This document shows, in pieces, positions 10,203-50,607 of a DNA stretch of 50,669 nt. Numbering within the stretch: the first letter of the stretch is position 1; the number at the start of each line of letters is the position of its first letter. Where the stretch lies: positions 1 through 50,669 of the IMG/VR virus record IMGVR_UViG_3300028831_000214; one strand, given 5' to 3'. The position numbers and the translations under genes were made by a program. The DNA comes from a virus. A model generated the notes under the pieces. The model was given only the letters and a program-made list of their open reading frames with translations, ran no database searches and was not told the DNA's origin.

Positions 10203-10205
10203 CAA

Positions 10206-12298: not shown

Positions 12299-12307
12299 AG
12301 CTTCCAT

Positions 12308-12390
12308 ACGCCACACGAGCCGCGGATTGGAATGTATCGATTCAGTGAGTGCGTGTGGCGTTTGGTGGCTGTGCGAGGGCGCAGTTAAAC
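12308..12390 (+). promoter_or_regulatory. bipartite motif site: hairpin plus GCGTGTGGcGTT-N21-GTTAAACA
   Basis: ACGCCACACG (12308-12317) pairs with CGTGTGGCGT (12352-12361). GCGTGTGG is at 12351-12358 and TTAAAC at 12385-12390, exactly 26 nt apart. Confidence 0.55.
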
Positions 12391-12406
12391 AAGGTTGGAG
12401 GACAAA

Positions 12407-13089: not shown

Positions 13090-13095
13090 GTTCTG

Positions 13096-13120
13096 GGATC
13101 GACGTCAAGTACGTCGATCC
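13096..13120 (+). terminator. perfect 10-bp hairpin
   Basis: GGATCGACGT-caagt-ACGTCGATCC, directly after the stop at 13089. Confidence 0.65.
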
Positions 13121-13141
13121 TGGTGTCTAGAGGAGGTGATC

Positions 13142-13471
13142 GTGAACATTCGTGAAGCTCGTCTGACAAGGACTCCTGAGGAGTTCGTGCGACACAAGCA
13201 CCAGATCGAGATCGAAACACGGCTTGGAGTTAGCTGGCAGAGGTTCAGGCCGAACTGCACCTGCGGGAAGCTACGTTCGAAGTGGCAACCTACGGAGCAG
13301 GACGCAGAAGGAATCGGGCGCACGCACATCAAGCGTGCCATTCGCAAGGAGGAACAGTTCCGTGAGCAACAAGACCAAGCTGCAGGAGTTGGGTCGGGAG
13401 ATGGCGAACATCTGCCTCGGCGGACAGCCGGGGGAGAAGGTCGTGGAGACGATCAGCGGGATCAGTGCTGA
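13142..13471 (+). CDS. hypothetical protein (3' end uncertain)
   Basis: GTG 13142 lies 5 nt after AGGAGG. The last ~35 codons overlap the next gene out of frame and look like shadow sequence. Confidence 0.45.
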   Translation: MNIREARLTRTPEEFVRHKHQIEIETRLGVSWQRFRPNCTCGKLRSKWQPTEQDAEGIGRTHIKRAIRKEEQFREQQDQAAGVGSGDGEHLPRRTAGGEGRGDDQRDQC

Positions 13472-13646
13472 GCTGACGCGGGTCGCGATGGTCGAGTCGG
13501 GTGTTCGCATGGAGGAGCTGACCGACGAGAACATGGAGGACTCGCCGATCGTGCGCCTCTACTACGCGCACCTGGCGATCGCGTGGTCGAAGGTGCTGAC
13601 GGAGGCGGCCGACCTGCAGACGTACTTCAAGTCGCTGGAGGCGTAG
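13362..13646 (+). CDS. hypothetical protein (94 aa)
   Basis: GTG 13362 follows AAGGAGGAACAG. The upstream part of track ORF 13224 is Arg/Ser-rich shadow. Confidence 0.55.
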   Translation: MSNKTKLQELGREMANICLGGQPGEKVVETISGISAELTRVAMVESGVRMEELTDENMEDSPIVRLYYAHLAIAWSKVLTEAADLQTYFKSLEA

Positions 13647-13647
13647 C

Positions 13648-13734
13648 ATGGAGTTCGTGCTACTGTACATCGTGTTGCCGTTCGCGGCGGGTGCCATCAT
13701 CGGACTCATCTTCGCCCTCGCTGCGAGGAGGTAG
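13648..13734 (+). CDS. 28-aa hydrophobic peptide (MEFVLLYIVLPFAAGAIIGLIFALAARR)
   Basis: Not in the track. ATG lies 2 nt after the upstream stop, and its own stop lies 2 nt before the next ATG. Single TM. Confidence 0.35.
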   Translation: MEFVLLYIVLPFAAGAIIGLIFALAARR

Positions 13735-13736
13735 AC

Positions 13737-14084
13737 ATGCCGAACGGCATTCGCGATCCGAAGGAAGGCAACAACGCAACGTCGCGTCGGATCGCACAGG
13801 CGGTCGACAACCGTGACTGGCAGAAGTTCCGTGTCAGCCTGAAAGGGATCTCGACGCGGGACAAGCTGACCAAGCTGTTGGAGTACCACAACGACGAGCT
13901 CAAGAAGCTGGGCGCGCTGATGGCTACGGAGCAGATCAGCGATCGCGACGTGCTTCGCCAGGTCGACGACATCAAGATCCGCATCGACAACTACCTCAAG
14001 GCGCTGGCGCGAGGTGGTCTGATCGATGTCAGTCGCAACTACATGCTGGACCTGATCGAGGGAAGGACGATGATCAGAAGATGA
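13737..14084 (+). CDS. hypothetical protein
   Basis: 115-aa ORF, with GAGGAGG RBS. Confidence 0.65.
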   Translation: MPNGIRDPKEGNNATSRRIAQAVDNRDWQKFRVSLKGISTRDKLTKLLEYHNDELKKLGALMATEQISDRDVLRQVDDIKIRIDNYLKALARGGLIDVSRNYMLDLIEGRTMIRR

Positions 14085-14860
14085 GACGCCTGTACAAGAT
14101 CGAGGTCGCTGCCATCGACGGTAGCGACGGCCTCGTCAACTTCGAGGGTTCGCTCAGCCGGATGGTCGGAGAGAACCGTCCTGGGCGAACGTTCTGGTCG
14201 GTCGTGCAGACCGAAGACGAGCCGCTCGGCGATCCGCTCGCCGTGACACGGCAACAGGATCCTCGCTCGAAGGCCATCGAAGACCAGATCGACAAGATGA
14301 CCAAGGGTGCGGAGGCAACGCATCGGCTCAGCATGGGCGGACGTATCGCCATCGCGGGTCAGGGTGGTCGACACGAGGTGTACTCGTGCATCCTGAAGGC
14401 CGACAGGCGAGACGTTCCGGAAGACGGAACGCATGAGGTCTTCAACATCGAGGCCCACCACGACTCGCACACGGGCCAGATCGTCGTCACGGTCAACGGA
14501 CCGTGGCTCGACTCGGCCGACAGGTACTGGGTACCGATGGCCAAGAGCACGGAGCTGCGTAGGATCGTCACGCCGGACTGGGTTCACCGCACCGTCTCGC
14601 CGGACGATCCCAAGGCGGTCGCGTCCGGGGGAGGCGGTCACGGTGGCGCCGAGTTCCGCTTCAAGATCGACAAGGAGACTGCGGACCGGTTCAAGGCCGC
14701 CGGTCTGACAGTGATCAGCTGGGACAGCTCGGACGACCAGTTCGTCGTCGTCACCAAGAACTGCTGGTACCAGGGAGTCATCCCGCCGAAGCATCGTCAC
14801 CTGTTCAAGGTGAACGCGGAGATGGTCAAGGGCTTCAACCCGGGAAGGTACGACATCTGA
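14081..14860 (+). CDS. hypothetical protein
   Basis: 259-aa ORF, ATGA coupling. No motif recognised. Confidence 0.7.
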   Translation: MRRLYKIEVAAIDGSDGLVNFEGSLSRMVGENRPGRTFWSVVQTEDEPLGDPLAVTRQQDPRSKAIEDQIDKMTKGAEATHRLSMGGRIAIAGQGGRHEVYSCILKADRRDVPEDGTHEVFNIEAHHDSHTGQIVVTVNGPWLDSADRYWVPMAKSTELRRIVTPDWVHRTVSPDDPKAVASGGGGHGGAEFRFKIDKETADRFKAAGLTVISWDSSDDQFVVVTKNCWYQGVIPPKHRHLFKVNAEMVKGFNPGRYDI

Positions 14861-15078
14861 TGCGATGCATGCTCTGCGGGGCAGAGGTTCCCGAGTTGCG
14901 GCTGATCGAGTCCATCTTCACGGACTTCGATCCCAAGGAGGTTTCGGAGCTGGTGGGCAAGGAGACCACCGCCGAGACCGGCGCGGACACGCTGTCGGTC
15001 TGCCCCGGCGAGTGCGCTGACACGATCCGCAAGAACAGCGACGTGATCATCCGAGACGAGCCCTTCAAAAGATCTTGA
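14860..15078 (+). CDS. hypothetical small Cys-containing protein
   Basis: 72-aa ORF, TGATG coupling. CxxC at the N-terminus and CPGEC later. Confidence 0.55.
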   Translation: MRCMLCGAEVPELRLIESIFTDFDPKEVSELVGKETTAETGADTLSVCPGECADTIRKNSDVIIRDEPFKRS

Positions 15079-15088
15079 AGGGTGGTGC

Positions 15089-15118
15089 TTGAAAAGTCCT
15101 TGAGTACCCTTGTATAAT
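15089..15118 (+). promoter_or_regulatory. strong consensus promoter P1 (TTGAAA-N18-TATAAT)
   Basis: TTGAAA at 15089-15094 and TATAAT at 15113-15118, followed by TAAA as in the promoter at 17467. Confidence 0.65.
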
Positions 15119-15189
15119 TAAATCAAGCCAGAATTTTGGCTAGGCAAGGAGGGCAGTAATCATGTGTGATACTGACAAGTGAATAGGTA

Positions 15190-15271
15190 GCCCTCGTGAG
15201 TTCGTCAGGGAGAATCCTCCAAGCGGTAAGCCCGTAGGAGCGGTAGGCAGGTTCGAGTCCTGTCGAGGGTA
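15190..15271 (+). ncRNA. tRNA-like element (acceptor + D-arm + T-arm, non-canonical anticodon arm)
   Basis: 7-bp acceptor GCCCTCG/CGAGGGT. D-stem GTTC/GAAT with loop GTCAGGGA. T-arm GCAGG-TTCGAGT-CCTGT. The central arm is 4+3 bp with a 5-nt loop, so no 7-nt anticodon loop can be drawn. Confidence 0.35.
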
Positions 15272-15293
15272 CGTAGTAAGGAGGGAGGTTTAC

Positions 15294-16055
15294 ATGGGAG
15301 AAATGGCAGAGCACGACGCCGAGATGTACGGATCGGAGTTCCAGGATCCGAAGCTCCAGTACTTGTACTGGGCCAAGCGCAAGTTCGACAGCAGTCCGCG
15401 ACTGAACTACATGGTCGCTCACAAGCACCCAGAGTTCGGTGTCCTCACTCGGGAGTGGGTCGACATCCTGATCGCACAGCGCGAACAGGCGATCGGGCGT
15501 ATCCAGCGACTCGACGACCCGAACGAGCTGATCGGTCAGCGGGTCACCGTCAGCCTGAATGGCTTCGAGACAGTCAGGAACTACGCACAAGCCGACATCG
15601 ACTTCACGATGGCGGTGTACAACAAGCTCTTCGGAGAGATCAAGGAGAAGAACGTGAGCTGGAATGTCGATGCACTGCGTCGCGAGGCGCGTCGGCTGCT
15701 CGAGGACGCCGACAAGGCCGAGGGCGTGCCGCAGGACGACATGTTCAAGGACGGTCAGGTCCTGACCTTCGCCAAGAAGTTCCAGGAGGGCGGTCGGAGC
15801 TACACCTACGTCGCCATCAAGGTCGCCGCCGTCCGCGTCGGCGAGTTCTGGTTCACCACCGCGCAGCGGTCGGGCGGTCTCAGCGGCCGGCTCAGCTGGC
15901 AGGCGCTGCTCGAGGGCATCGGCCTCGAGAACCTGCACACCATCGAGGTCCTCGACATGGAGACGGCGATGCCGCTCAAGGAGTGGGTCAAGGGCGTGCA
16001 GGAGGTCGTCGAGCAGGACGACGTGAACAGCAGGCCGGCCGGTGCCGACCAGTAG
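15294..16055 (+). CDS. hypothetical protein
   Basis: 253-aa ORF, with AAGGAGGGAGG RBS. The alternative-frame 282-aa ORF (15455-16303) is Arg/Gly-rich shadow. Confidence 0.7.
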   Translation: MGEMAEHDAEMYGSEFQDPKLQYLYWAKRKFDSSPRLNYMVAHKHPEFGVLTREWVDILIAQREQAIGRIQRLDDPNELIGQRVTVSLNGFETVRNYAQADIDFTMAVYNKLFGEIKEKNVSWNVDALRREARRLLEDADKAEGVPQDDMFKDGQVLTFAKKFQEGGRSYTYVAIKVAAVRVGEFWFTTAQRSGGLSGRLSWQALLEGIGLENLHTIEVLDMETAMPLKEWVKGVQEVVEQDDVNSRPAGADQ

Positions 16056-16230
16056 GGACGAGGACAGACTCCTCACGCCGGGCGAGGTCGCTGCGCTGTT
16101 CCGCGTCGACCCGAAGACCGTCACCCGCTGGGCAGCCGCCGGCAGGATCGGCAGCATCCGTACGCCTGGCGGCCACCGCCGCTTCCGCGAATCCGAGATC
16201 CGACTCTTCCTGGAGACCCCGCAGCCATGA
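16042..16230 (+). CDS. BldC-like MerR/excisionase-family DNA-binding protein
   Basis: 62 aa. LLTPGEVAALFRVDPKTVTRWAAAGRIGSIRTPGGHRRFRESEIRLFL closely parallels Streptomyces BldC (LLTPAEVATMFRVDPKTVTRWAKAGKLTSIRTLGGHRRYREAEVRALL, recalled from memory). Confidence 0.8.
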   Translation: MPTSRDEDRLLTPGEVAALFRVDPKTVTRWAAAGRIGSIRTPGGHRRFRESEIRLFLETPQP

Positions 16231-16457
16231 CCGCACCGAACCAGCGGCCGAAGGACGACTACACGGTCGACGAGCTCATCGAGATGCTCACCGAGTACCG
16301 TGACATCGATCCGGAGACCCGCGGCAAGAAGAAGGTAGTCTTCAAGACCACCAACCAGCTCCGTCCCGCATCCACCTACAAGGTCGTCTTCAACCCGCCG
16401 TACGCGTACGAGAAGGACAAGCGGTTCCAGATCTTCCCCGGAGGCTGGACCACCTGA
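16227..16457 (+). CDS. hypothetical protein (76 aa)
   Basis: ATGA coupling to the BldC-like gene. Confidence 0.6.
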   Translation: MTAPNQRPKDDYTVDELIEMLTEYRDIDPETRGKKKVVFKTTNQLRPASTYKVVFNPPYAYEKDKRFQIFPGGWTT

Positions 16458-16496
16458 GCATTACCCCTTCACCTGCAGCTGTGAGCGCGGGTGAGG

Positions 16497-16615
16497 GCGC
16501 TGCAGAGACTCCGCCAGGAGTCCGCCTTGGACATGGGGCAAGGGGGAAGCGCAGACGGTGACTATGCTGCGGAGCGACAGCGTGCTCACCTCGGTTCGAA
16601 TCCGGCCTGCAGCGC
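16497..16615 (+). ncRNA. structured RNA with a tRNA-like T-arm and 9-bp closing stem (not a canonical tRNA)
   Basis: GCGCTGCAG (16497-16505) pairs with CTGCAGCGC (16607-16615). GGTTCGAATCC is at 16593-16603. Internal hairpins GACTCC-gcca-GGAGTC and CGCAG..CTGCG. 119 nt, with no drawable anticodon arm. Confidence 0.3.
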
Positions 16616-16697
16616 GTGAAAGGAGGTACCACTGTGAAGTAGTACGGAGCAGTAGCTAAGGATCCGAACTGTGTGAGATTGCCTGTAGCTTGCAAGA

Positions 16698-16725
16698 GGG
16701 TGAAGGAGCCGGAACTCCTTCACCC
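16698..16725 (+). terminator. perfect 11-bp hairpin closing the untranslated interval
   Basis: GGGTGAAGGAG-ccggaa-CTCCTTCACCC. The same CCTTCACC 8-mer occurs at about 16466-16473, so alternative pairing is possible. Confidence 0.5.
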
Positions 16726-16739
16726 GATGGAGGTGACAG

Positions 16740-16895
16740 ATGATCACGGACCACAAGTACCGTCCGATGTACAAGGCGGACGTCGCAGGTATCGCGAAGG
16801 GTAACTGTCCCTTCAACGGTACCTGCAACAAACCCAAGGAGGAGCACGCCGCAAGCGTGAACCTCAAAGACAAGAGGAGACCGAGTTCGCGATGA
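16740..16895 (+). CDS. hypothetical small protein (51 aa)
   Basis: Not in the track. ATG 16740 follows GGAGGTGACAG, and its stop overlaps the next ATG (ATGA). Confidence 0.45.
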   Translation: MITDHKYRPMYKADVAGIAKGNCPFNGTCNKPKEEHAASVNLKDKRRPSSR

Positions 16896-27876: not shown

Positions 27877-27909
27877 GAATGCCCCGGAGCGCACCTCTCC
27901 GGGGCATTC
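27877..27909 (+). terminator. perfect 13-bp hairpin
   Basis: GAATGCCCCGGAG-cgcacct-CTCCGGGGCATTC, 9 nt after the stop at 27868. Confidence 0.7.
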
Positions 27910-27929
27910 CCCATCCTCAAGGGCAGTGT

Positions 27930-30122
27930 ATGGAATCTGACATCAAGACGTTCTTCAACCTGATCTTCGGTCGCACGAACGAAGGTTACATTTGCGTGTC
28001 CTTCTACTCCACTGAGGCCAAGGGCAAGCGCAAGATGACGGAACGGTTCTTTCGCTACCCTGATCAGGTAGGCGACGCTGCTCGCGCAGCTGCGGATGGG
28101 ATGTACGACTCAGATGTCTACTACTGTCCGCAGCTCTTCGAGACTGCGCGACGCACCAAGGACACGGTGAAGAGCTGTCCCACGCTCTGGGCAGACCTCG
28201 ACTCCTGTCCACCCAACAAGATGCAGGTCAAGCCGTCCGTCATCGTCGAAAGCTCACCTGGACGTTACCAGGCACTTTGGCGGGTCGCTCAGGCACTGCC
28301 GCCTCACGTCGCTGAAGACCTCTGCAAGCGTATCGCGTACTTCCACGCAGAGGACGGAGCAGACAGAAGCGGCTGGGACCTGTCACAGCTGCTCCGAGTA
28401 CCCACCACGATCAATTACAAGTACAGTGGCGAGCCTACCGTCAACGTCATCGGTGGCGAGCTTCGTGCAATGTACACGCCGAAGGACTTCGAGGGCTACC
28501 CCGAGGTCAAGCACAGCGTCTTCCTGAAGACGCCTATGCCCACGGCGGAGGAGATGCCTCAGGAGCCTTCCGAGGATATCCTGCAGAAGTACAAGCATGC
28601 CCTGCTCCCAGTGACCTACGACCTGTTCTCTATCACGCCCGATGGGGAATGGTCGGAGAAGCTCTGGAAGCTGGAGATGCTTCTGTTCGAGATGGGTATG
28701 ACGAGGGAGGAGGTCTTCGCCGTATCATGGGATGCGGCCTGTAACAAGTACCGTCGAGACGGCAAGCAGAAGGAGTACCTTTGGACTGAGGTGTGCCGAG
28801 CCTTCGTCGCGTACAACGATCGCGTCAACGCAACGGTGTTTCCAGGACAAGTCATCGCCGACCTCCTGGACGACGAGGAGATCAAGATCGCCAACGCCCA
28901 GACAGGCTTCGTGGAGGAGTACATCGAATGGGCATCGGGCCTCGGAGACGCAGCTACCCAATACCACCAGGCTGGTGCGTTCACAGTCCTGAGTGCACTC
29001 CTATCTGGACGAGTGACACTCCCAACGAGTTATGGACCTGTGGTTCCGAACCTCTGGTTTATGATTCTTGGCGACACTACGTTGACGCGGAAGTCGACGG
29101 CGATGGATATCGCAACGGACCTTCTGATGGACGTCGACCCGGACGCGATCCTCGCAACGGACGGTTCAGTGGAAGGCCTCATGCAAGGTCTATCCACGAG
29201 GCCGAGGCGCCCCTCGATCTTCTTGAGGGACGAGTTCTCGGGCCTCCTGGAGATGATCAGTAAGAAGGACTACTATGCCGGCATGGCCGAAGTGCTCACC
29301 AAGTTGTACGACGGTAAAATGCAGAAGCGCGTCCTGCGCAAAGAGGAGGTGGTGGTTAGAAACCCTATCCTCCTTATCCTCGCTGGAGGAATTCGCAACC
29401 GAGTACAGGGCCTACTTACCCACGAGCACGTCAGCTCCGGCTTCATTCCCCGTTTCATCTTCGTCACTGCAGAAAGCGACACAAGCCGCCTTCAGCCCCT
29501 TGGGCCGCCTACTGCACGGGACATGGGCAATCGCGACCACCTCCTCGAGAAGATGGAAGACATGGTCGAACACTACGGCCAGTCGCGAGGCGCCTACATC
29601 GAGGCCAGAGGGGACCGGAAGCCTTCCACCGAAGGGTTCAGCGCACAGCTGACTCGGGAGGCCTGGGCACGGTACAACAAGCTGGAGGGCGATCTAATCC
29701 AGAGCGGACTCGACTCGGAGAAGCCTGAGCTGATGACGCCACTGTTCGACCGTCTCTCCAAGTCAGGACTGAAGGCAGCAGTTCTACTGGCAGCCGCACG
29801 CCAGGTGGGACAGGAAGGAGTGACAGTAGAGGTCACGGACATCCTCCACGCTATCCGCTACGTAATGCAGTGGCGAGCGTACGCTCTGGAGGTTGTCACA
29901 GGCATCGGCAAGAACACCTACGAGCGGGAGATCGAGCGCATCCTGAACGCGATCGTGAAGCGGCCAGGCATTACGCGTTCGCAGCTCATGCAGTCGTACC
30001 ACCTGACCGCATCGAATGCCAACGCAGTGTTCGACACGCTCATGCAACGAGGACAGATCACCATGAAGCGCACCGAGAGCGGTGCACAGATGTACTATCC
30101 ACTCATCGGAGGAATCAAGTGA
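27930..30122 (+). CDS. bifunctional primase-polymerase / DUF3987-D5-type helicase
   Basis: Start moved to ATG 27930, downstream of the terminator hairpin. 730 aa. N-terminal prim-pol-like region (VIVESSPGRYQALW..LLRVPTTINYKY) and a central helicase-like region. Confidence 0.7.
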   Translation: MESDIKTFFNLIFGRTNEGYICVSFYSTEAKGKRKMTERFFRYPDQVGDAARAAADGMYDSDVYYCPQLFETARRTKDTVKSCPTLWADLDSCPPNKMQVKPSVIVESSPGRYQALWRVAQALPPHVAEDLCKRIAYFHAEDGADRSGWDLSQLLRVPTTINYKYSGEPTVNVIGGELRAMYTPKDFEGYPEVKHSVFLKTPMPTAEEMPQEPSEDILQKYKHALLPVTYDLFSITPDGEWSEKLWKLEMLLFEMGMTREEVFAVSWDAACNKYRRDGKQKEYLWTEVCRAFVAYNDRVNATVFPGQVIADLLDDEEIKIANAQTGFVEEYIEWASGLGDAATQYHQAGAFTVLSALLSGRVTLPTSYGPVVPNLWFMILGDTTLTRKSTAMDIATDLLMDVDPDAILATDGSVEGLMQGLSTRPRRPSIFLRDEFSGLLEMISKKDYYAGMAEVLTKLYDGKMQKRVLRKEEVVVRNPILLILAGGIRNRVQGLLTHEHVSSGFIPRFIFVTAESDTSRLQPLGPPTARDMGNRDHLLEKMEDMVEHYGQSRGAYIEARGDRKPSTEGFSAQLTREAWARYNKLEGDLIQSGLDSEKPELMTPLFDRLSKSGLKAAVLLAAARQVGQEGVTVEVTDILHAIRYVMQWRAYALEVVTGIGKNTYEREIERILNAIVKRPGITRSQLMQSYHLTASNANAVFDTLMQRGQITMKRTESGAQMYYPLIGGIK

Positions 30123-30949
30123 CACAGCCCGACAGCATCGCCGTCTTCTCGGGCGGCCTGGACTCGACCACGATGGTCTACGGCATGCTCGACAGCGGCA
30201 AGACCCCGCACCTGCTGTCGTTCAACTACGGCCAGCGGCACAAGAAGGAGCTGGTCTTCGCCGAGCGCACCGCGCAGCTCCTCGGCCTCCGCTGGGACTG
30301 CATCGACCTCTCCGGCATCACCGGCCTGATCAGCAACTCGGCCCTCACGTCGAAGGGCCGTGAGGACTGGTCGGATGCACAGGCGATCGCGCCCGGCTTC
30401 GTCGGACCGATCTACGACGCTGAGATCGAGGTGCCGGAGGGTCACTACGCCGAGGACAACATGAAGGCGACGGTCGTCCCGAACCGCAACATGATCATGC
30501 TGAGCATCGCCGCCGGCGTGGCCGTAAACAACTCCTACGACAGCGTCTACACGGCCGTGCACGCCGGCGACCACTTCGTGTACCCGGACTGTCGTCCGCA
30601 GTTCATCATGGCCACCAACGCGGCGGCCGTCCTGGGCAACGAGGGCTTCGGCGCCCTGCCCAAGCTGGAGGAGCTGCAGGCGGTGCCAAGCTTCATCATG
30701 GCGCCGTACCTGAACATCTCCAAGGCGGACATCGCCAGCGAGGCCATCCGGCTGAAGGTGCCCTTCGAGAACACCTGGTCCTGCTACAAGGGCGAGTCGA
30801 TGCACTGCGGCAAGTGCGGCACGTGCGTCGAGCGTCTCGAGGCCATCCACGAGGCGCACGTCAAGGCGAACATCCTGTCGCCGGAGAACTGGAAGGACAA
30901 CACGAAGTACGCCGACGCGGACTTCTGGAAGCAGGCGGTGACCAAGTAA
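30119..30949 (+). CDS. queC: 7-cyano-7-deazaguanine (preQ0) synthase QueC
   Basis: GTG 30119 (GTGA overlap). AVFSGGLDSTT PP-loop, VPNRNMIML, and C-terminal SCYKG...HCGKCGTCVER zinc motif. Confidence 0.9.
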   Translation: MTQPDSIAVFSGGLDSTTMVYGMLDSGKTPHLLSFNYGQRHKKELVFAERTAQLLGLRWDCIDLSGITGLISNSALTSKGREDWSDAQAIAPGFVGPIYDAEIEVPEGHYAEDNMKATVVPNRNMIMLSIAAGVAVNNSYDSVYTAVHAGDHFVYPDCRPQFIMATNAAAVLGNEGFGALPKLEELQAVPSFIMAPYLNISKADIASEAIRLKVPFENTWSCYKGESMHCGKCGTCVERLEAIHEAHVKANILSPENWKDNTKYADADFWKQAVTK

Positions 30950-31122
30950 TGGGACGCAAGGACAATAGGAACTGGAACGCACGCGGACAGTGGGGCTCCT
31001 CCAACGGCGGCTCCACGAGTGGCAAGAGCAACGGACGGGCCAAGGCCTTCGCCATTCTCTTCGTCATCGCCGGAGCCACCTTCGTCCTCAGCCCGTTCGT
31101 CTACATCATCACGCACCAGTAG
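30949..31122 (+). CDS. small membrane protein (57 aa) inside the que cluster
   Basis: TAATG coupling to queC. C-terminal TM AFAILFVIAGATFVLSPFVYII. Confidence 0.5.
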   Translation: MGRKDNRNWNARGQWGSSNGGSTSGKSNGRAKAFAILFVIAGATFVLSPFVYIITHQ

Positions 31123-31130
31123 GGAGAGAC

Positions 31131-31244
31131 ATGTTCATCGAGCTCATGCAGCACCGCGGTCGCTGGATCGCCCTCGCCGCCATCAGCATCCTCCTGATGC
31201 TGGACATCGTCTGGGGCGACGGTAGCTGCTCCAAGGCCGTCTGA
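31131..31244 (+). CDS. small membrane protein (37 aa) inside the que cluster
   Basis: ATG 31131 follows AGGGAGAGAC. TM WIALAAISILLMLDIVW. Confidence 0.4.
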   Translation: MFIELMQHRGRWIALAAISILLMLDIVWGDGSCSKAV

Positions 31245-31254
31245 CACCGAACCC

Positions 31255-31299
31255 CACGGGCGTGTGGAGTTGTGAAGGCTACACACGCCCGTGTTAAAC
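31255..31299 (+). promoter_or_regulatory. bipartite motif site: 12-bp hairpin plus GCGTGTGGaGTT-N21-GTTAAACA
   Basis: CACGGGCGTGTG (31255-31266) pairs with CACACGCCCGTG (31282-31293), with a 15-nt loop. GCGTGTGG is at 31260-31267 and TTAAAC at 31294-31299 (26-nt gap). Confidence 0.55.
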
Positions 31300-31345
31300 A
31301 GTACATCCGAAGTAGACCAAACCCCACACGCACTAGGGAGCGCAA

Positions 31346-31828
31346 GTGGATGTCATCGTTCGGCATAACGCCGAGATCGCACACAGGCTGTCTCAGTCGC
31401 CTGGCAAGTGCCAGCAGATCCACGGTCACGGCCTGCAGATCACGCTGACGCTGATGATGCTGCGTCAGGACGAGAAGACCGGCATGGTCCAGAACCAGCT
31501 GGGGAAGACCTTGGACTTCTCCGAGATCAAGCAGCACTTCCGTTCCTACATCGACGAGGGCTACGATCACCACCTGCTCCTGAACGAGAAGGACGAGTGG
31601 GCACGACTTCACCTCTCCTTCAGCGTCGGGCGTCCCGACGAGCAACTGCCGGGACTGAAGACCTTCCCGGGCGACCCGACCGTCGAGAACCTCGCCAAGT
31701 GGATCGCGCTCTGGGCCGCCTCGACGTTCGCTGCGAACACCATCGTTCGAATCGACGAGACCCGAACCAACGCAGCCGAAGCTCGCGCCATCTGGAAGGG
31801 CTCGCTGCAGCCGGAGGTGACGATGTGA
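31346..31828 (+). CDS. queD: 6-carboxytetrahydropterin synthase QueD
   Basis: 160 aa, GTG start after GGGAGCGCAA. The CQQIHGHG..HHLLLNE pattern is typical of the PTPS/QueD family. Operon context. Confidence 0.85.
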   Translation: MDVIVRHNAEIAHRLSQSPGKCQQIHGHGLQITLTLMMLRQDEKTGMVQNQLGKTLDFSEIKQHFRSYIDEGYDHHLLLNEKDEWARLHLSFSVGRPDEQLPGLKTFPGDPTVENLAKWIALWAASTFAANTIVRIDETRTNAAEARAIWKGSLQPEVTM

Positions 31829-32562
31829 TCAAGATCAACGAGATCTTCGGACCAACCGTTCAGGGCGAGGGAGCTGCAGGTGGTCGCCACTGCATGTTCG
31901 TCAGGGTTGCCAACTGCAACCTGACCTGTACGTGGTGTGACACAGCCTACACCTGGGCATTCAACGAGCACAAGGCCAACAAGCTCGAGGTCCCCGTGAT
32001 CTTCAACAAGGACGAGAACCTCAAGGAGATGTCCGCCGAGGACGTGCTGGAGAAGCTCCACGACCTGTGGGACATCTATGAGCACCCGACGATGATCGTC
32101 ATCTCAGGTGGTGAGCCCCTGATGCAGTCCAAGGAGCTGATCCCCCTGGCACAGGAGCTCGTCAACTACGACAACATGATTCACGTCGAGACGGCCGGCA
32201 CGCTGATTCCCGATTCTACGTTCCACGAGCTCGTCACGCAGTACAACGTGTCGCCGAAGCTGGCACACTCCGGCAACCGGCTCGAGATGCGGCGGAAGCC
32301 GGACGCGCTTCGATTCTTCGCTGAGTCGGACAAGTCCTGGTTCAAGTTCGTGCTTCGTACGCCGACTGACTTCGAGGAGGTGGACGAACTCGTCGCCACG
32401 TTCGACATCAACCCGCACCGTGTCATGGTGATGCCCGAAGGGGTGACCGCCGAGAAGAACATGGAGATCGCCAAGACGCTCGTCGACGACGCAGTCGCAC
32501 GTGGCTACGGCCTCTCCTACCGCACACACATCCTGCTCTGGAAGGACGTCCGTGGAAAGTAA
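31825..32562 (+). CDS. queE: 7-carboxy-7-deazaguanine synthase QueE (radical SAM)
   Basis: GTG 31825 (overlaps the queD stop). EIFGPTVQGEG and CNLTCTWCDT cluster motif. Confidence 0.9.
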   Translation: MIKINEIFGPTVQGEGAAGGRHCMFVRVANCNLTCTWCDTAYTWAFNEHKANKLEVPVIFNKDENLKEMSAEDVLEKLHDLWDIYEHPTMIVISGGEPLMQSKELIPLAQELVNYDNMIHVETAGTLIPDSTFHELVTQYNVSPKLAHSGNRLEMRRKPDALRFFAESDKSWFKFVLRTPTDFEEVDELVATFDINPHRVMVMPEGVTAEKNMEIAKTLVDDAVARGYGLSYRTHILLWKDVRGK

Positions 32563-33127
32563 CCCACTCGAACACGAGCACGAGACGCCGGGCTGCGCGG
32601 AGGATCTCCTCGCCGTCCACGCTGGACTCGACATGAGTACGGAGCACGGGAAGGACACGCCGACTCGCTTCCTGACGATGCTCGGCGACCTGACCTCACA
32701 CAAGACCTGCAACGAGGCCTGCATCAAGTGGAAGGTCTTCGACGGTGACGTGGACGAGATGATCGTCGTCAAGAAGATCCCGTTCGTCAGCGTCTGCAAC
32801 CATCACGTCATCCCGTTCGTCGGCCACGCTTGGGTCGGCTACGTCCCGAAGACCAAGATCGTCGGCCTGTCGAAGTTCGCACGCGTGGTCGAGCACTTCG
32901 CACGTCGACTCCAGGTGCAGGAACGACTCACGCAGGAAGTGCACAACTTCATCCACCTGAACCTCGACACCAAGGGCATCATCGTTCGAATGGAGGCGGA
33001 GCACCTGTGCATGACGATCCGTGGGGCTCAGGCTCCGGGAGTTACCACCGTGACCACGAAGACCTCTGGCGTCTTCGCCGATCACTCCCGCACCGCGAAG
33101 CACGAGTTCCTGGAGGCCATCAAGTGA
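32552..33127 (+). CDS. folE: GTP cyclohydrolase I FolE
   Basis: GTG 32552. SVCNHHVIPF, VGLSKFARVVEHFARRLQVQERLT and EAEHLCM motifs are characteristic of GCH-I. Confidence 0.9.
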   Translation: MESNPLEHEHETPGCAEDLLAVHAGLDMSTEHGKDTPTRFLTMLGDLTSHKTCNEACIKWKVFDGDVDEMIVVKKIPFVSVCNHHVIPFVGHAWVGYVPKTKIVGLSKFARVVEHFARRLQVQERLTQEVHNFIHLNLDTKGIIVRMEAEHLCMTIRGAQAPGVTTVTTKTSGVFADHSRTAKHEFLEAIK

Positions 33128-33588
33128 CTCAACCCAACTGGACCCTCGCCAACATGAACTTCGGCGCCATGGTCGAGGACTGCACCGCCGACAGTCAGCG
33201 ATGGTTCCCCGGCAAGACCCAGTCGGTCGCCTTCATGACGCTGGCGATGATGGGCGAGGCCGGCGAGGTCGCGAACATCGTCAAGAAGATCGAGCGTGGC
33301 TCCAGCAGGCTCAACGACCCGGCCGTCAAGGAACACCTGACGGAGGAGATCGTGGACGTTCTGATCTACCTCTGCAACATGATCGGCCTCCCCGAGTTCG
33401 CGGACGTCGACTGGGGTCAGGTCTGGGACGCCAAGCGACGCTTCAACGAGGACCGCTTCGGTCCCGTCAAGCACGACAACCACGTCCACAAGCCTCGGGC
33501 GCTGCCGGATCAGGTCCTCGCCGAGGCTGGCCTGGACGTCGAGGTGAAGCAGCAGACGTGGCAGACGCCGGGAGAGTTCGCATCGTGA
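33124..33588 (+). CDS. mazG: MazG-like nucleoside triphosphate pyrophosphohydrolase
   Basis: GTGA coupling. MMGEAGEVANIVKKIERG...EEIVDVLIYLCNM is the all-alpha NTP-PPase signature. Confidence 0.8.
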   Translation: MTQPNWTLANMNFGAMVEDCTADSQRWFPGKTQSVAFMTLAMMGEAGEVANIVKKIERGSSRLNDPAVKEHLTEEIVDVLIYLCNMIGLPEFADVDWGQVWDAKRRFNEDRFGPVKHDNHVHKPRALPDQVLAEAGLDVEVKQQTWQTPGEFAS

Positions 33589-33899
33589 GCGAGCTTCAGG
33601 ACAAGATCAACCAGTTCTGCCAGGAGTTCGAGCAGAAGCGCTTCGAACGCCACGTTGAGGGCGAGAAGAAGTACGGCGCCGGTACCTGGCTGAAGATCGA
33701 TACCCTCCAGCACGCCATGGACGAGGTACTCGATCTCGGCAACTACGCGATGTTCACCTACGCCAAGCTCCGACTCCTGCAGGAGCGGCTCGTCAAGGGC
33801 TTCGAGGCCGACGGAAGCATCGCACGTGCACGGGAGGACTATGACGGCCCTCTCGTGATGGGCAAGGACAGCATCGTCACGAGGAAGGACATCCAATGA
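33585..33899 (+). CDS. second small all-alpha protein, MazG/DUF1599-like (tentative)
   Basis: GTGA coupling. 104 aa. The segments EGEKKYGAGTW and MDEVLDLGNYAMF are reminiscent of helper NTP-PPase-like proteins next to nucleotide-modification genes (memory, weak). Confidence 0.4.
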   Translation: MSELQDKINQFCQEFEQKRFERHVEGEKKYGAGTWLKIDTLQHAMDEVLDLGNYAMFTYAKLRLLQERLVKGFEADGSIARAREDYDGPLVMGKDSIVTRKDIQ

Positions 33900-34168
33900 C
33901 AAGCTGTGTGCAGTACACGGGACGCTGGGTCACGATCCAGGCCTTCATGGACGCGTCGGGCTACATCCCGGTCGTCGGTCCGGTCCCGCACGTCCGCGTC
34001 GACAACTCCGGCGGGGAGCCGCGCCTGAAGGTCTGGTGCTCCGACGGTCAGATCCGCGAGGTCCGCAACGGGCAGTACCTGGTGCTGGAGGACGAGCAGG
34101 ATCCGCCTCTGCCCTCCCGGTACAACGCTTCAACCCAGTCGGTCGGTACCGTCTGGACGATGCCGTGA
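33896..34168 (+). CDS. hypothetical protein translationally coupled to dpdA
   Basis: 90-aa ORF. ATGA coupling upstream and GTGA coupling downstream. Confidence 0.6.
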   Translation: MTSCVQYTGRWVTIQAFMDASGYIPVVGPVPHVRVDNSGGEPRLKVWCSDGQIREVRNGQYLVLEDEQDPPLPSRYNASTQSVGTVWTMP

Positions 34169-34929
34169 AAGCGGCCCTGATTCCGCCGAAGGGCTACTTC
34201 AACACGGCCAGGCGCTCGGACATCCACCTCGTTCTGGCACAGATCGAGGACTTCACCTACCGCAACATGTACCAGCACCTCGACGGGGACAACTTCATCA
34301 TCCTGGACAACGGTGCCGCAGAAGGTGATGCGGTGCCGGACGGTCACCTGATGACGATGGCCGCTACGCTGGGTCCGAACGAGATCGTCCTGCCGGACGT
34401 GATGGAGGACGCGGAACGTACGGTCCTTCGAACCAAGGCGTTCCTGTGGACGTTCAGGCCATTCATCCAGGACAACGTGGATGCGTTCGGCTTCATGGCC
34501 GTACCGCAGGGGTACAACGTCGGCGAGATGAAGGACTGCATCAAGGAGTTCATCCAGTTCGAGGAGATCAAGACCCTCGGCATCCCACGACACCTGGTGG
34601 CCAAGGATCACATGGGTCGGTACGTCCTATGCGATTGGCTGGAGAAGGAAAAACTCCACACGCGCTTCGCGGTCCATCTGCTGGGCACGAGTGGTGACTA
34701 TCCCACCGAGATTCGGTACATCGCAACGGACTTTCCTTGGGTCCGTTCGGTCGACAGCTCGATGCCGTACAACTACACTATCGCCGGCCAGCGTCTCGAG
34801 GACAAGCACAAGGTCACTCGGCCGGAGGGGTACTTCGAGAAGGACTGGAAGCTGAACGACGTTCTGCTTCAGCACAACATCGACGTCTACATGAGGTGGG
34901 CACGTGGAGTCGAAAGCACCCGGAGCTAA
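34165..34929 (+). CDS. dpdA: DpdA-family DNA transglycosylase (TGT-fold, inserts 7-deazaguanine into DNA)
   Basis: GTG 34165. 254 aa. The TGT-like motif series ILDNGAAEG, MAVPQGY, LGIPRHL, VHLLGTSG, VDSSMPY. Adjacent to the preQ0 pathway genes. Confidence 0.8.
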   Translation: MKAALIPPKGYFNTARRSDIHLVLAQIEDFTYRNMYQHLDGDNFIILDNGAAEGDAVPDGHLMTMAATLGPNEIVLPDVMEDAERTVLRTKAFLWTFRPFIQDNVDAFGFMAVPQGYNVGEMKDCIKEFIQFEEIKTLGIPRHLVAKDHMGRYVLCDWLEKEKLHTRFAVHLLGTSGDYPTEIRYIATDFPWVRSVDSSMPYNYTIAGQRLEDKHKVTRPEGYFEKDWKLNDVLLQHNIDVYMRWARGVESTRS

Positions 34930-37315
34930 CTGTTCCGAGTGCCCTCTGAAGGACGAGAAGATGGCTCCCTCTGCCATTCCGGTAGGGGGAGCCACCCTCG
35001 CAGTCGTAGGAGAGGCACCAGGATTCCAGGAGGTTACCTACGGCAAGCCCTTCATGGGCCCTTCGGGTAAGCTCCTGAAGACGGTACTGAGGTACCACGG
35101 AATCGATCCTAAGGAGGTGATGTTCTCCAATGTTGTACTATGCCGTCCTGAAGGGAACGCAACTCCTCCTGCGACAGCGCAAGCTGCGTGTCGTGGACGT
35201 CTTGTTCGTGAACTGGACGAGTCCGGCGCACGAAGTGTCGTGGCACTTGGCGGGACCGCAGCTGGAGCTCTGGTTGACGATCCCCGAACTATCACACAGC
35301 TTCGCATCGGACCTCCGAAGCCTCCCACTCGAGCGCTCGATGGATCGAGTGTTGAAAGAGTTGTGCCGACGTGGCACCCCGCTTACTGTCTCCGAAATCC
35401 AGATGCGTTTCCTACCATGGCCGCGGACATCGAGAAGGTCACCTGGACGAAGGCCAAGGAGTGGAGAGAGCCGAACTGGAACTACTTCGACACTCCGCTA
35501 GAGGCTGTCGCGTTCCTTGACGAACTCTGGCAGTGGCAGAACTCGTCGGGCAGGTACGAGCTCGTCGTCGACATCGAGGTCGGTATCGAGAAGGATACCG
35601 CCTTCGACCACCCGAACCACTACCAGATGCTCTGCATCGGACTTGCATGGGAGAAGGGAGCTGCAGGTGTCATCGGAGATGGAGCTCTGGCGTCTGCGCA
35701 GGTTCTCGGACGTCTCGCTCGGATACTGTACCGTTCGAAACTCATTGCTCAGAACGGGAAATTTGACCTCGCCGGCCTTTGGCCTCTCTTTCCACGCCTG
35801 GAACTGTGGTTCGATACTATGCTCGCGCATTACGCTCTGGACGAACGTTCGGGCGGGCATGGACTTAAGGTCCTTGCAGTGGAACGACTCGGCGCTCCTC
35901 AGTATGACGACGAGATCAAGAAGTACATCCCGCGCGGAGGCAACTACGCCAACATCCCGAGGGAGATCCTCTACAAGTACAACGCGCTCGACGTCGCCTG
36001 CACCTGGGATCTCCATGAGCTCTTCACTATCGAGATGGACCGAGATCCGGTCGCTTCGGGAAGGCACGAGTGGCCTTACCCCGAACTCCCTGTACGAACT
36101 CTTCGGGACTGGCATGACTTCCTAGTCTCCGCCTCGAATGCCCTGATGTACCTGGAGCTCAACGGCATCGCTGTCGACGTGAACTACAACACGCAGCTGT
36201 CGTACGAGTACATCGCCAAGCTCGATGCCATGGAGAAGGGTCTCTCGGAGATCGTCAACGAGGCGACCAAGGGGGAGAAGCCGGCGATCAACCCTCGGAG
36301 CCCGAAGCAGGTGAAGGAGTTCCTTCACAGTCAGGGTATGCGAGTCGAGAAGACCGACAAGGAGGTGCTGAATGGTCTCGCGGAGAGACTACATCCGGAG
36401 AGCTACGCGGGAAGGTTTGTCAACGGGCTTCTGGACCATCGCTTCGAAGCGAAGCGTTACGGAACGTTCGTCAAAGGTATTCGTCAAAGGCTGTACGGTG
36501 GACGTGTCTTTACCAACTACCTCCTTCACGGTACCACGTCGGGACGACTGGCTTCACGTAACCCGAACCTTCAGAATATTGTTCGGGACAAGAATATCCG
36601 AAGGCAGTTTGTCGCCAGCAAGCCTGGCTATGTCCTCACCCAGGCGGATTACAAACAGGCTGAGGGCCGAGTCATTGCGTGGCTGGCTCAGGACGAGTTC
36701 CTTCGAAGCATCTTTGCAGACCCAGAGGCTGACCTCTTCAACACCCTGGGCGCCAGGCTCTACAACCTCCCACCAGGCGTAATTCCGAACAAGGAGCAGC
36801 GTGTTCGTGTCAAGGCGTACTTCTATGGCCTCAGCTACGGACGAGAGGCCTACAGCATCGCCAAGGAATACAAGCTCCCCGTGGCACAAGTTCAAAGAGA
36901 CCTGGAAGCGTTCTTCAAGACGATTCCCCAAGTCGCTGCTTGGCAAGAGTCCATCAAGCAGCGAGTCCTCGACGGTCACGATCTCATCTCGCCATTCGGT
37001 CGGCGTCGTCGGTTTGCTCTCATCACGGAGCAGACAAAGCAGGATGTCCTCAAGGAAGCACTCAGCTATCTGCCGCAGTCGATCGCTTCCGACATCTGCC
37101 TCACTGCCCTTACTCGTATTCGACCCAAGCTCCGTGGAATCGGTTTTGTCCGACTCACGATCCACGATGCACTGGTCGTCGAGCATCACGAGTCGAAACT
37201 GGACCTTGTGTCGGAGATGCTACGCACTGAGATGGTCCAAGCAGCTCGTGAGATAACTGAATACGTTCCGTTCGAAGTCGATGTGTCAACAGGGCACAGC
37301 TGGGGGGATCTGTAA
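34904..37315 (+). CDS. family A DNA polymerase with an N-terminal family-4 UDG-like domain and 3'-5' exonuclease
   Basis: 803 aa. UDG-4 motifs CSECPL, GEAPGFQE..PFMGPSGKLL, HPAYCLRNP. Exo motif VVDIEV. Pol motifs QADYKQAEGRV, KAYFYGLSYG, IHDALVVE. Confidence 0.9.
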   Translation: MESKAPGANCSECPLKDEKMAPSAIPVGGATLAVVGEAPGFQEVTYGKPFMGPSGKLLKTVLRYHGIDPKEVMFSNVVLCRPEGNATPPATAQAACRGRLVRELDESGARSVVALGGTAAGALVDDPRTITQLRIGPPKPPTRALDGSSVERVVPTWHPAYCLRNPDAFPTMAADIEKVTWTKAKEWREPNWNYFDTPLEAVAFLDELWQWQNSSGRYELVVDIEVGIEKDTAFDHPNHYQMLCIGLAWEKGAAGVIGDGALASAQVLGRLARILYRSKLIAQNGKFDLAGLWPLFPRLELWFDTMLAHYALDERSGGHGLKVLAVERLGAPQYDDEIKKYIPRGGNYANIPREILYKYNALDVACTWDLHELFTIEMDRDPVASGRHEWPYPELPVRTLRDWHDFLVSASNALMYLELNGIAVDVNYNTQLSYEYIAKLDAMEKGLSEIVNEATKGEKPAINPRSPKQVKEFLHSQGMRVEKTDKEVLNGLAERLHPESYAGRFVNGLLDHRFEAKRYGTFVKGIRQRLYGGRVFTNYLLHGTTSGRLASRNPNLQNIVRDKNIRRQFVASKPGYVLTQADYKQAEGRVIAWLAQDEFLRSIFADPEADLFNTLGARLYNLPPGVIPNKEQRVRVKAYFYGLSYGREAYSIAKEYKLPVAQVQRDLEAFFKTIPQVAAWQESIKQRVLDGHDLISPFGRRRRFALITEQTKQDVLKEALSYLPQSIASDICLTALTRIRPKLRGIGFVRLTIHDALVVEHHESKLDLVSEMLRTEMVQAAREITEYVPFEVDVSTGHSWGDL

Positions 37316-49668: not shown

Positions 49669-50607
49669 CTACGTCAGCTGGGCGTGGGTCTCCTGCGTCT
49701 GCACGGTCAGCGTGTACGCTGCCGTGGCGGGCCCGATCAGGCACTGGTACTCGATCGACGCTCGCACGACGTCGCCCTGCGAGCTGAGGCTGACCTCGTA
49801 GGTGTCCTTGAGAGACACCGGCGTCAGGATGGTGATCTTGTTGTTCGTGCCCTTGGTGGCCACGAGCGTGATCGACTGCGCCGTCATCGCCTTGAAGGCG
49901 TCGTAGTCGGTACGGTCCTGGAAGTCACGCTCGAGCGACAGGGTTACCTCTCGCTCACCGAACGCGATGAACTGTGCACCGCGACTCGGGTTCTTGAGGC
50001 GGTAGTTCGGCTCGGCGTTGTCCTCGACCTGGAACTCGAAGGTGTCCGTGTCGAGCACCGACGAGCTCGTCGGGATCTGGATGTCGTACTGACCCATGCC
50101 GTACGGGGTCGTGGTCGGCCAGGTCACCGTCGGGTTGGACTGCGTCGCCTCGTCGTTGCCGACGATGCTGACGTTGTAGGTCAGCGTGCCGTCGTCGATG
50201 CCGAAGGTGAACGAGCCGACCACGCAGCCGGAGTACCCGAAGACCACGCCGTTGCGCACGATGGTGATCGACATCGTCTTGGCCGGCGTCGCGTTCGCGT
50301 TCGGCGTACCCGTGTAGGTGAGGTTCGTCGTACCGCTCTTCACCACCGTCATGCGACTGGCGTACATGAACCAGACGACCACGTCTTCCGTAGCGTCCAT
50401 CTCGATGTCGCCCTCGACGTGCGCGTTGCCCGGCACGGCGTAGTTCACGTCTGGCGAGTTACGGATGGCTCGGCGGAAGTTGGTCTCCTGCTGGTACATC
50501 AGGGACTCGCTGTTGAATGGGACGAACTTGACGGGCGCCAGGTAGGTCCCCGAGACTGCCTCGAGGGCCACGCCCAGTACGCCACTCGCGCCGACACCGA
50601 TTGCCAT
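49669..50607 (-). CDS. major tail (tube) protein
   Basis: 312 aa, directly upstream of the chaperones and tape measure, followed by an attenuator-like hairpin. Its 5' end lies in the terminal repeat. Confidence 0.8.
   Translation of the reverse strand: MAIGVGASGVLGVALEAVSGTYLAPVKFVPFNSESLMYQQETNFRRAIRNSPDVNYAVPGNAHVEGDIEMDATEDVVVWFMYASRMTVVKSGTTNLTYTGTPNANATPAKTMSITIVRNGVVFGYSGCVVGSFTFGIDDGTLTYNVSIVGNDEATQSNPTVTWPTTTPYGMGQYDIQIPTSSSVLDTDTFEFQVEDNAEPNYRLKNPSRGAQFIAFGEREVTLSLERDFQDRTDYDAFKAMTAQSITLVATKGTNNKITILTPVSLKDTYEVSLSSQGDVVRASIEYQCLIGPATAAYTLTVQTQETHAQLT

Follow-up and report, generated by a model that had tools for sequence, protein, structure and literature searches.

The window analysed here, the whole 50,669-nucleotide stretch of the IMG/VR virus record IMGVR_UViG_3300028831_000214, is a phage-like genome of ~50.7 kb with a GC content of ~60%. 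Its plus strand carries a set of genes for the synthesis of 7-cyano-7-deazaguanine (preQ0) and, further downstream, a gene for a protein of 254 amino acids (aa) resembling the tRNA-guanine transglycosylases (TGTs). The five genes, examined here as a candidate system for 7-deazaguanine modification of the phage DNA, are the following, with the E-values of family matches in brackets:

30119-30949, plus strand: queC, 7-cyano-7-deazaguanine synthase, 276 aa (Pfam QueC, 2.2e-52; phrog_1550, 1.5e-62)
31346-31828, plus strand: queD, 6-carboxytetrahydropterin synthase (Pfam PTPS, 1.7e-20; phrog_2389, 2e-24)
31825-32562, plus strand: queE, 7-carboxy-7-deazaguanine synthase, a radical S-adenosylmethionine (SAM) protein (phrog_2076, 2.3e-54; TIGR03365, 4e-28; Radical_SAM, 2e-8)
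32501-33127, plus strand: folE, GTP cyclohydrolase I (Pfam, 2.6e-53)
34165-34929, plus strand: dpdA3, minimal TGT-fold (TIM-barrel) 7-deazaguanine transglycosylase homologue, 254 aa (by homology to phage phiST and a structural model)

The assignments of QueC, QueD, QueE and FolE are secure as judged from their sequences, and so is the full preQ0 pathway gene set, which the preliminary description of this DNA had read from short motifs. The motifs are all found in the translations, at the positions where they had been placed: SGGLDS and CGKCGTC in QueC, QGEG and CNLTCTWCDT in QueE (CNLTCTWC being the cluster motif), and CNHHVIPF and EAEHLCM in FolE. The Pfam, PHROG and NCBIfam matches are strong. 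The NCBIfam cut-offs were passed by QueC, which has an internal insertion relative to the profile (164.3 bits to TIGR00364, cut-off 150.3), and by FolE (176.7 bits to NF006825, cut-off 174); QueD and QueE scored under their equivalog cut-offs, yet match their Pfam and PHROG families. The start of folE is ambiguous between 32501, 32552 and 32633. It is established biochemistry that FolE, QueD, QueE and QueC convert GTP to preQ0. No QueF, ArcS, amidotransferase or nucleotide kinase was recognised by Pfam in 20 other plus-strand open reading frames (ORFs), which upholds the earlier observation that the first three are missing.

The identity of the 254-aa protein was settled by its relationship to a defined enzyme and by structure, the route through sequence profiles to TGT having failed. 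The DpdA3 subfamily was defined from CGPG_00065 of Cellulophaga phage phiST, a TGT homologue that is detectable by HHpred only (PMC10516641). A blastp alignment of the window protein to CGPG_00065 spans the full length (3e-13, 23% identity). Searches returned 145 metagenomic homologues, none with a Pfam annotation, and a family profile and an invariant-residue analysis were built from 50 of them, which share 27-52% identity with the window protein. Compared by hhalign, this profile and phiST CGPG_00065 are related with a probability of 99.7% (E = 2.5e-25). The AlphaFold2 model of the protein is a (beta/alpha)8 barrel with a predicted local distance difference test (pLDDT) score of 95.6 and a predicted template modelling (pTM) score of 0.92. 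Its best Foldseek match in BFVD is M4SLA5, the predicted structure of CGPG_00065 (template modelling, TM, scores 0.82/0.81, E = 6e-16), and its best 27 matches in the PDB are all TGTs (best E = 3.4e-6, TM 0.55-0.65), to which the structural alignments give 11-14% identity.

Nine residues (D48, N49, E53, D78, R152, H171, L173, G174 and D197) are invariant in 50 of 50 homologues. The aspartates D48, D78 and D197 are located at beta-strand ends of the model, and their order is the one in which the aspartates acting as general acid, in base recognition and as nucleophile occur in TGT and bacterial DpdA (PMC10164549). The motifs ILDNGA, AVPQG, HLLGTSG and VDSSMPY are present in the translation, and a local alignment to E. 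coli Tgt, itself statistically insignificant, places VPQG, HLLG and VDSS on IIQG, YLMG and MFDC. When E. coli Tgt, Rosebush DpdA and HVTV-1 DpdA4 were each compared by hhalign as single sequences, no significant relationship emerged. Membership in the DpdA4/DUF6610 family (PF20314) was considered and rejected, with sub-threshold matches in 10 of the 50 family members (best 0.0014) and an hhalign probability of 1.5% to HVTV-1 gp69. Since homology to phiST is strong and the comparisons with DUF6610 and HVTV-1 gp69 are insignificant, the protein is, on sequence homology and predicted structure, a divergent DpdA3. The earlier description of the protein as a DpdA was sound as to the TGT fold, to which full-length phiST homology is now added, and has to be amended as to the generic DpdA family, whose curated profiles it does not match. 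Candidates for the catalytic aspartates of which that description spoke are the three invariant ones at strand ends in the model.

These genes are packed among others, all transcribed in the same direction:

27879-30122, plus strand: primase with a RepB_primase domain (Pfam, 1e-9), its stop overlapping the queC start (GTGA)
30949-31122, plus strand: 57-aa ORF with a C-terminal hydrophobic helix (G+C content at third codon positions, GC3, 0.86)
31131-31244, plus strand: 37-aa ORF with one hydrophobic helix (GC3 0.92), preceded by a ribosome-binding site (RBS), GGGAGAGAC
33124-33588, plus strand: MazG-like all-alpha NTP pyrophosphohydrolase (phrog_229, 4e-8; Pfam MazG, 8e-4)
33585-33899, plus strand, GTG start at 33585: orf104, a 104-aa helical-hairpin protein of unknown function (motif ERHxxGExKYGxGTWL...DEVLDLxNY)
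33896-34168, plus strand: orf90, a 90-aa ORF between orf104 and dpdA3 (GC3 0.88)
34904-37315, plus strand: fusion DNA polymerase of uracil-DNA glycosylase (UDG), exonuclease and PolA domains (Pfam UDG, 7e-22; DNA_pol_A_exo1, 2e-9; DNA_pol_A, 9e-60)

The module thus lies between the primase and the fusion polymerase. The packing by GTGA and ATGA overlaps that had been noted earlier was found as 4-nt overlaps at six junctions (primase to queC, queD to queE, folE to mazG, mazG to orf104, orf104 to orf90 and orf90 to dpdA3). The queC to orf57 junction is a TAATG overlap, dpdA3 and polA overlap by 26 nt, and the single gap in the module, of 101 nt, contains a hairpin with a 12-bp perfect stem. GC3 of all module ORFs, the small ones included, is 0.82-0.95, which is typical for real genes of this genome.

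The same arrangement recurs in other phages. In four ~50-kb metagenomic relatives (L004-L007), whose DpdA3 proteins are 45-49% identical to that of the window, the order primase, queC, a variable segment, queD, queE, folE, MazG-like gene, orf104-like gene, dpdA3 and PolA is kept. The MazG-like and orf104-like genes are retained in the more distant L012 (hhalign 99.2% and 95.9%, respectively). Among isolated phages, Bacillus phage BSP7, the related BSTP phages and Weizmannia phage Youna2 have the order primase, QueC, QueD, QueE, FolE, one further gene, DpdA3-like gene and PolA; the window family and the DpdA3-like protein of BSP7 are related with an hhalign probability of 99.9%, and the BSP7-group genes are also recovered by tblastn with phiST DpdA3. 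In phiST itself the order is queD, queE, folE, a MazG/dUTPase-like gene, DpdL, a P-loop protein, DpdA3, a small ORF and the polymerase. The step from primase to queC is common to L004-L007, BSP7 and Youna2, and dpdA3 adjoins the polymerase, as in the window, in L005-L007, L012, L013, BSP7, Youna2 and phiST. At the nucleotide level, megablast of positions 30000-35000 against 50,697 deposited phage records gave no relatives.

The pathway matches, the full-length phiST homology, the TGT fold, the invariant residues, the recurrent synteny and the translational coupling all support reading the region as a DpdA3-type 7-deazaguanine DNA-modification module within a replication operon that extends from primase to polymerase. 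This interpretation of the sequences and the structural model has, in our estimate, a probability of about 0.72. Under it, FolE, QueD, QueE and QueC would produce preQ0 from GTP, and DpdA3 would exchange guanine for a 7-deazaguanine base in the phage DNA by a TGT-like double displacement, as homology and synteny suggest, with D197 as the putative nucleophile and D48 as the putative acid/base. Phage DNA carrying 7-deazaguanine would be expected to resist guanine-dependent restriction, and the probable role of the MazG-like enzyme and the 104-aa protein would be to adjust the (d)GTP pool or to help DpdA3. Because all assayed DpdA3 phages (the three being phiST, CP220 and immuto_2-6A) replace 100% of their guanine (PMC10516641), substitution in this phage is likely, by analogy, to be high and complete or nearly so. 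The inserted base is probably 2'-deoxy-7-cyano-7-deazaguanosine (dPreQ0), or, should QueC or DpdA3 halt at the amide or favour it, dADG (2'-deoxy-7-amido-7-deazaguanosine).

A number of observations weigh against this interpretation. The 254-aa protein matches no Pfam profile, PF01702 (TGT) included, and no NCBIfam profile, its sole match in scans of Pfam, NCBIfam and PHROG being a PHROG of unknown function. Among its 50 family members, one matches Pfam TGT (3.4e-4), and the profile built from them retrieved no TGT from the PDB sequences, only noise. The assignment of the three aspartates to the catalytic residues of TGT is tentative, as this mapping draws on the insignificant local alignment and on similarity of a modelled fold. 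No cysteine is found among the invariant or near-invariant columns of the 50 homologues, and it follows that the family has no zinc site. The chain ends ~55 residues after beta-8, which leaves no room for Ins8, the insertion through which bacterial DpdA contacts nucleic acid (PMC10164549). The activity of DpdA3 has never been reconstituted, the E. coli tests of the defining authors having failed, and its substrate is unsettled; these authors favour post-replicative insertion (PMC10516641). Beyond that paper the literature searched offered no later study of mechanism, either for DpdA3 or for pre-replicative deazaguanine. The identity of the base is a prediction of limited confidence: gene content has mispredicted the base before, in that dPreQ1 was predicted for immuto_2-6A and only fdPreQ1 was found (PMC10516641). 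Finally, the source phage is uncultured and known as a metagenomic sequence alone.

Comparison with known systems places the module closest in kind to that of phiST (PMC10516641). The two share a minimal TGT-fold protein of ~255 aa that is missed by curated TGT profiles, and a gene order in which dpdA3 follows que/folE and a MazG-like gene and lies directly upstream of a DNA polymerase. They differ in that the window DpdA3 is only 23% identical to the phiST protein and is part of a clade of its own, made up of high-GC phages of ~50 kb known from metagenomes only. Unlike the described DpdA3 systems, the window has a complete FolE, QueD, QueE and QueC set and a clade-specific 104-aa protein, lacks DpdL (present in phiST) as well as QueF and DpdN (present in immuto_2-6A), and is known here from its genes alone. 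BSP7, the BSTP phages and Youna2 share the module order and a homologous DpdA3-like protein, but they are low-GC Firmicutes phages in which a thymidylate-kinase-like gene replaces MazG and orf104 and the polymerase has no UDG fusion.

The Rosebush-type phages, which have dPreQ0 in their DNA and are protected from restriction, also combine FolE, QueD, QueE and QueC with a transglycosylase and have no amidotransferase; Rosebush and CAjan modify only ~30% of their G (PMC6884629). The DpdA of the Mycobacterium phage Rosebush, however, has 385 aa, is annotated as a queuine tRNA-ribosyltransferase and showed no significant hhalign relationship to the window family, and its cluster adjoins the terminase gene and is free of nucleotide-metabolism neighbours. 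With bacterial DpdA of the Dpd system (Salmonella Montevideo; PMC10164549) and with TGTs, the window protein shares the TIM-barrel TGT fold and the proposed three-aspartate double displacement; in contrast to them it is ~130 residues shorter, has no zinc site, no Ins8 and no DpdB ATPase partner, and gives no profile-level match.

More remote DpdA3-like loci were also encountered. In L013 (5060-8753) QueC and a Vut_1 gene are present, and a MazG gene and a PF18909 dATP/dGTP diphosphohydrolase gene lie directly upstream of dpdA3; FolE, QueD and QueE are absent from the fetched stretch. Vut_1 is the YhhQ-type preQ0 transporter family, and this gene content suggests that in L013 the precursor is salvaged rather than synthesised. 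In L014 (GCA_040961635.1, an 85-kb contig; 8001-16777) a dCTP-deaminase/dUTPase-like gene comes after the DpdA3-like gene, and genes for QueD, a phosphoribosyltransferase, QueE and a FolE2-type cyclohydrolase lie further along; by analogy with toyocamycin biosynthesis, the phosphoribosyltransferase hints at a step that forms a nucleotide. In L015 (8001-10248) the gene after a DpdA3-like gene is a Gat-QueC fusion (GATase and QueC, 478 aa). Such fusions are the signature of archaeosine (dG+) pathways, and the position of this one next to a DpdA3-like gene indicates that enzymes of this kind may go together with a variety of final bases.

At the flanks of the module, the primases of the relatives also contain DUF3987, and the polymerases of L005-L007, L012 and L013 likewise join a UDG-superfamily domain and a 3'-5' exonuclease to PolA; UDG-polymerase fusions of such kind were recently described in other phages (bioRxiv 10.1101/2025.03.26.645540). 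As to the genome as a whole, the first and last 100 nt of the window (1-100 and 50570-50669) each recur once more and the 200-nt ends do not, which is consistent with a complete genome, circularly assembled or terminally redundant, with a terminal overlap of 100-199 nt.

The preliminary description had singled out the small genes in and around the pathway as possible new accessory or specificity factors, and comparison with the relatives separates them. The first of two supposedly consecutive NTP-pyrophosphatase-like genes (33124-33588) is indeed MazG-like. Its Pfam MazG match of 20 bits is just under the 22-bit cut-off, its orthologues, which share an invariant GEAGEV...EEIVDVLIYL, carry the EExxE...ExxD metal motif, and by tblastn it matches actinophage genes annotated as MazG-like nucleotide pyrophosphohydrolase. 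Orthologues of 50-61% identity occupy the equivalent position in L004-L007, and weak PDB matches are to MazG-like and DCTPP1 proteins.

The second of these genes (33585-33899) shows no significant relationship to either MazG or PF18909. Its 104-aa product has 20 homologues, all within the window phage clade, with orthologues in L004-L007 and L012, and lies directly upstream of dpdA3 in L004-L007, whereas in the window itself and in L016 an orf90 or 88-aa gene stands between. It gave no Pfam match even at E <= 5, and the model, a two-helix hairpin of moderate confidence (pLDDT 68), was uninformative in Foldseek. Kinship to MazG was rejected (hhalign 0.3% against the MazG-like family), as was kinship to MazZ/PF18909, which had been suspected from a shared short KYG..W motif and from the PF18909 gene in the equivalent slot of L013: the hhalign probability against a 21-sequence PF18909 profile was 1%, with just 15 columns (GEKKYGxGTW) aligned. 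A weak tblastn match in Pseudomonas phage JG054 (2e-3) is uninterpretable. On sequence comparison, the MazG-like gene and the 104-aa protein are conserved members of the module.

The other small genes are not. The 90-aa ORF is coupled to dpdA3 by the 4-nt overlap, as had been described, but it is no strict ORFan, having two 88-aa homologues (53-58% identity) among 1.84 billion representatives, one of them in the identical slot of L016, where proteins of 104, 88 and 252 aa follow one another. It has no family matches and no counterpart in L004-L007, and weak matches to repeats of large beta-propeller or Ig-like proteins were set aside as uninformative. Judged from its distribution, it is a real gene that is a dispensable insert of a sub-clade, and the idea of a conserved accessory factor does not hold for it. 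Nor does it hold for the two tiny membrane ORFs. The 57-aa ORF, which matches no Pfam, PHROG or NCBIfam family, and the 37-aa ORF are both without homologues in L004-L007, and the queC-queD gap of the relatives (L005 6228-7157; L006 3840-4730; L007 6699-7276) is filled with unrelated genes, a 309-aa Neprosin-domain protein with a signal peptide, secreted proteins of 151-153 aa and small membrane ORFs, each of which lies upstream of the conserved hairpin. By this comparison the gap is a variable cargo slot, and the two ORFs are dispensable, lineage-specific cargo.

The hairpin and the motif to which it belongs are found at the following positions:

31255-31293, plus strand: hairpin with a 12-bp perfect stem (0 matches in shuffles)
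31291-31331, plus strand: bipartite motif copy, GTGTTAAAC, ~21 nt, AACCCCACACGC, immediately upstream of the queD RBS
8787, 12351, 17177, 24086, 24167, 31260, 31320, 34652, 37955, 40756 and 49647, both strands: sites of the 12-mer, each with a TGTT(T/A)AAC box ~23 nt upstream

As had been proposed, the hairpin upstream of queD is conserved: it is kept in four of four relatives (L004-L007), with compensatory changes at three pairs, and in the hairpin regions of the relatives the CGTGTGGAGTT block does not vary, and the boxes TGTT(T/A)AAC and, beside the RBS, CCAC(A/G)CG are shared. A regulatory function confined to the que genes could not be retained, as the hairpin is a copy of a genome-wide motif, its 5' arm carrying an inverted-orientation copy of the 12-mer GCGTGTGGAGTT. 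In the whole genome 16 copies of the bipartite motif with at most 2 mismatches were counted against 3.7 in shuffles, and CCACACGC occurs 12 times where 2.98 are expected. TGTT(T/A)AAC followed after ~23 nt by AACnCCACACGC (also written TGTTTAAC-N23-AACnCCACACGC) marks ~11 mostly intergenic sites on both strands. The motif is shared by related phages, in which it is conserved, and often lies just upstream of an RBS; in some places two inverted copies make up a hairpin.

A preQ1 riboswitch was considered and rejected, since the whole window gave no Rfam match at the gathering threshold and positions 31100-31500 none to a preQ1 family (E <= 10). Simple scans of 29800-35200 for sigma-70 promoters and terminators gave no excess over shuffles, and the window yielded neither an RNA polymerase nor a sigma factor. 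From its sequence and distribution the bipartite motif is likely a phage-wide promoter or operator element, and the hairpin is read as this element together with an inverted copy, marking a transcription-unit boundary inside the module. A perfect copy of the 12-mer AACTCCACACGC is located at 34652-34663, inside the dpdA3 coding sequence and ~250 nt upstream of the polA start, and might be an internal regulatory site for the polymerase gene.

The manner in which DpdA3 would gain access to guanine deserves consideration, and the alternative that survives best concerns this step. One may speculate that modification is partly pre-replicative: the MazG-like enzyme would convert dGTP to dGMP, DpdA3 would exchange the base on the free deoxynucleotide, and after the action of kinases the polymerase would incorporate 7-deaza-dGTP. 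In a related form, which would extend to DpdA3 systems at large and which we consider just as doubtful, the pyrophosphohydrolase, or its PF18909, dNMP-kinase-like or dUTPase-like counterpart in other lineages, would join the minimal TGT barrel in a nucleotide-pool pathway that removes dGTP and feeds the neighbouring polymerase with 7-deaza-dGTP, and this would make DpdA3 the first TGT-fold enzyme to exchange bases on free deoxynucleotides. Either route would account for total guanine replacement. Enzymes of free-nucleotide metabolism touch dpdA3 in five lineages: a MazG-like gene in the window clade and L012, MazG and the PF18909 diphosphohydrolase in L013, thymidylate-kinase-like proteins in BSP7 and Youna2, a P-loop kinase-like AAA_18 protein and a MazG/dUTPase-like protein in phiST (PMC10516641), and the dCTP-deaminase/dUTPase-like protein and phosphoribosyltransferase in L014. 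In most of them the block abuts or overlaps the polymerase gene, and the Rosebush cluster beside its terminase gene has no such neighbours. These neighbours, the adjacency to the polymerase and the lack in DpdA3 of the zinc site and Ins8, the polynucleotide-binding parts (PMC10164549), leave room for a partly pre-replicative route, as does the free ADG nucleoside in CP220-infected cells (cited in PMC10516641).

We nevertheless regard this route as unlikely. All characterised TGT and DpdA enzymes act on polynucleotides, and post-replicative insertion is the view put forward in the paper that defined DpdA3 (PMC10516641). Among actinophages without DNA modification MazG-like genes are common, Pfam recognised no kinase in the scanned plus-strand genes of the window, and a gene neighbourhood is circumstantial evidence.

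In BSP7 (BSP7_056, L002 6306-6869) and Youna2 (L001 6453-7004) the gene for the thymidylate-kinase-like P-loop protein (phrog_761, 9.5e-16 and 1.5e-9, respectively) overlaps the start of the DpdA3-like gene. Both genes are labelled 'hypothetical' in GenBank, and in other BSTP records the DpdA3-like gene is plainly mislabelled, for instance as 'polynucleotide kinase' or 'integrase/recombinase'.

That the que genes are an auxiliary cassette for queuosine in host tRNA, with a 254-aa protein that is tRNA-directed or an unrelated TIM barrel and with unmodified phage DNA, is very improbable. It is true that preQ0 is also a precursor of tRNA queuosine, that the protein matches no curated DpdA profile, and that Mycobacterium phage Orion has a DpdA and unmodified DNA (PMC6884629). 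Nevertheless, no QueF, QueA or QueG was found in the scanned genes and no tRNA gene in the window, the gene is translationally coupled inside a replication operon, and it is a homologue of DpdA3, whose phages are fully modified (PMC10516641). The notion that the DpdA3-like gene is a degenerate, non-catalytic remnant and that modification depends on a host DpdA or TGT could draw on its extreme divergence from TGT (11-14% identity in structural alignments) and its missing zinc subdomain, but is scarcely credible for a protein with nine residues, three aspartates among them, invariant in 50 homologues of 27-52% identity, with a confident predicted fold, a conserved reading frame of GC3 0.82 and a synteny held across phages of distant hosts.

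The module interpreted here as DpdA3-type DNA modification belongs to a known type of anti-restriction system and is not a new kind; what is new is its presence in an unstudied clade of high-GC phages with genomes of ~50 kb, known from metagenomes only. The same module is shown to occur, under 'hypothetical' labels, in isolated phages of Bacillus and Weizmannia. The comparison also divides conserved members, the MazG-like and 104-aa proteins, from dispensable cargo and thereby provides concrete experimental targets. Genomes of this kind are likely refractory to many restriction enzymes and perhaps also to certain sequencing chemistries. The link of DpdA3 to free-nucleotide enzymes and to the polymerase bears on whether complete guanine replacement is pre- or post-replicative, and a pool pathway, if true, would account for the fact that 100% replacement of guanine is reached by DpdA3 phages only.

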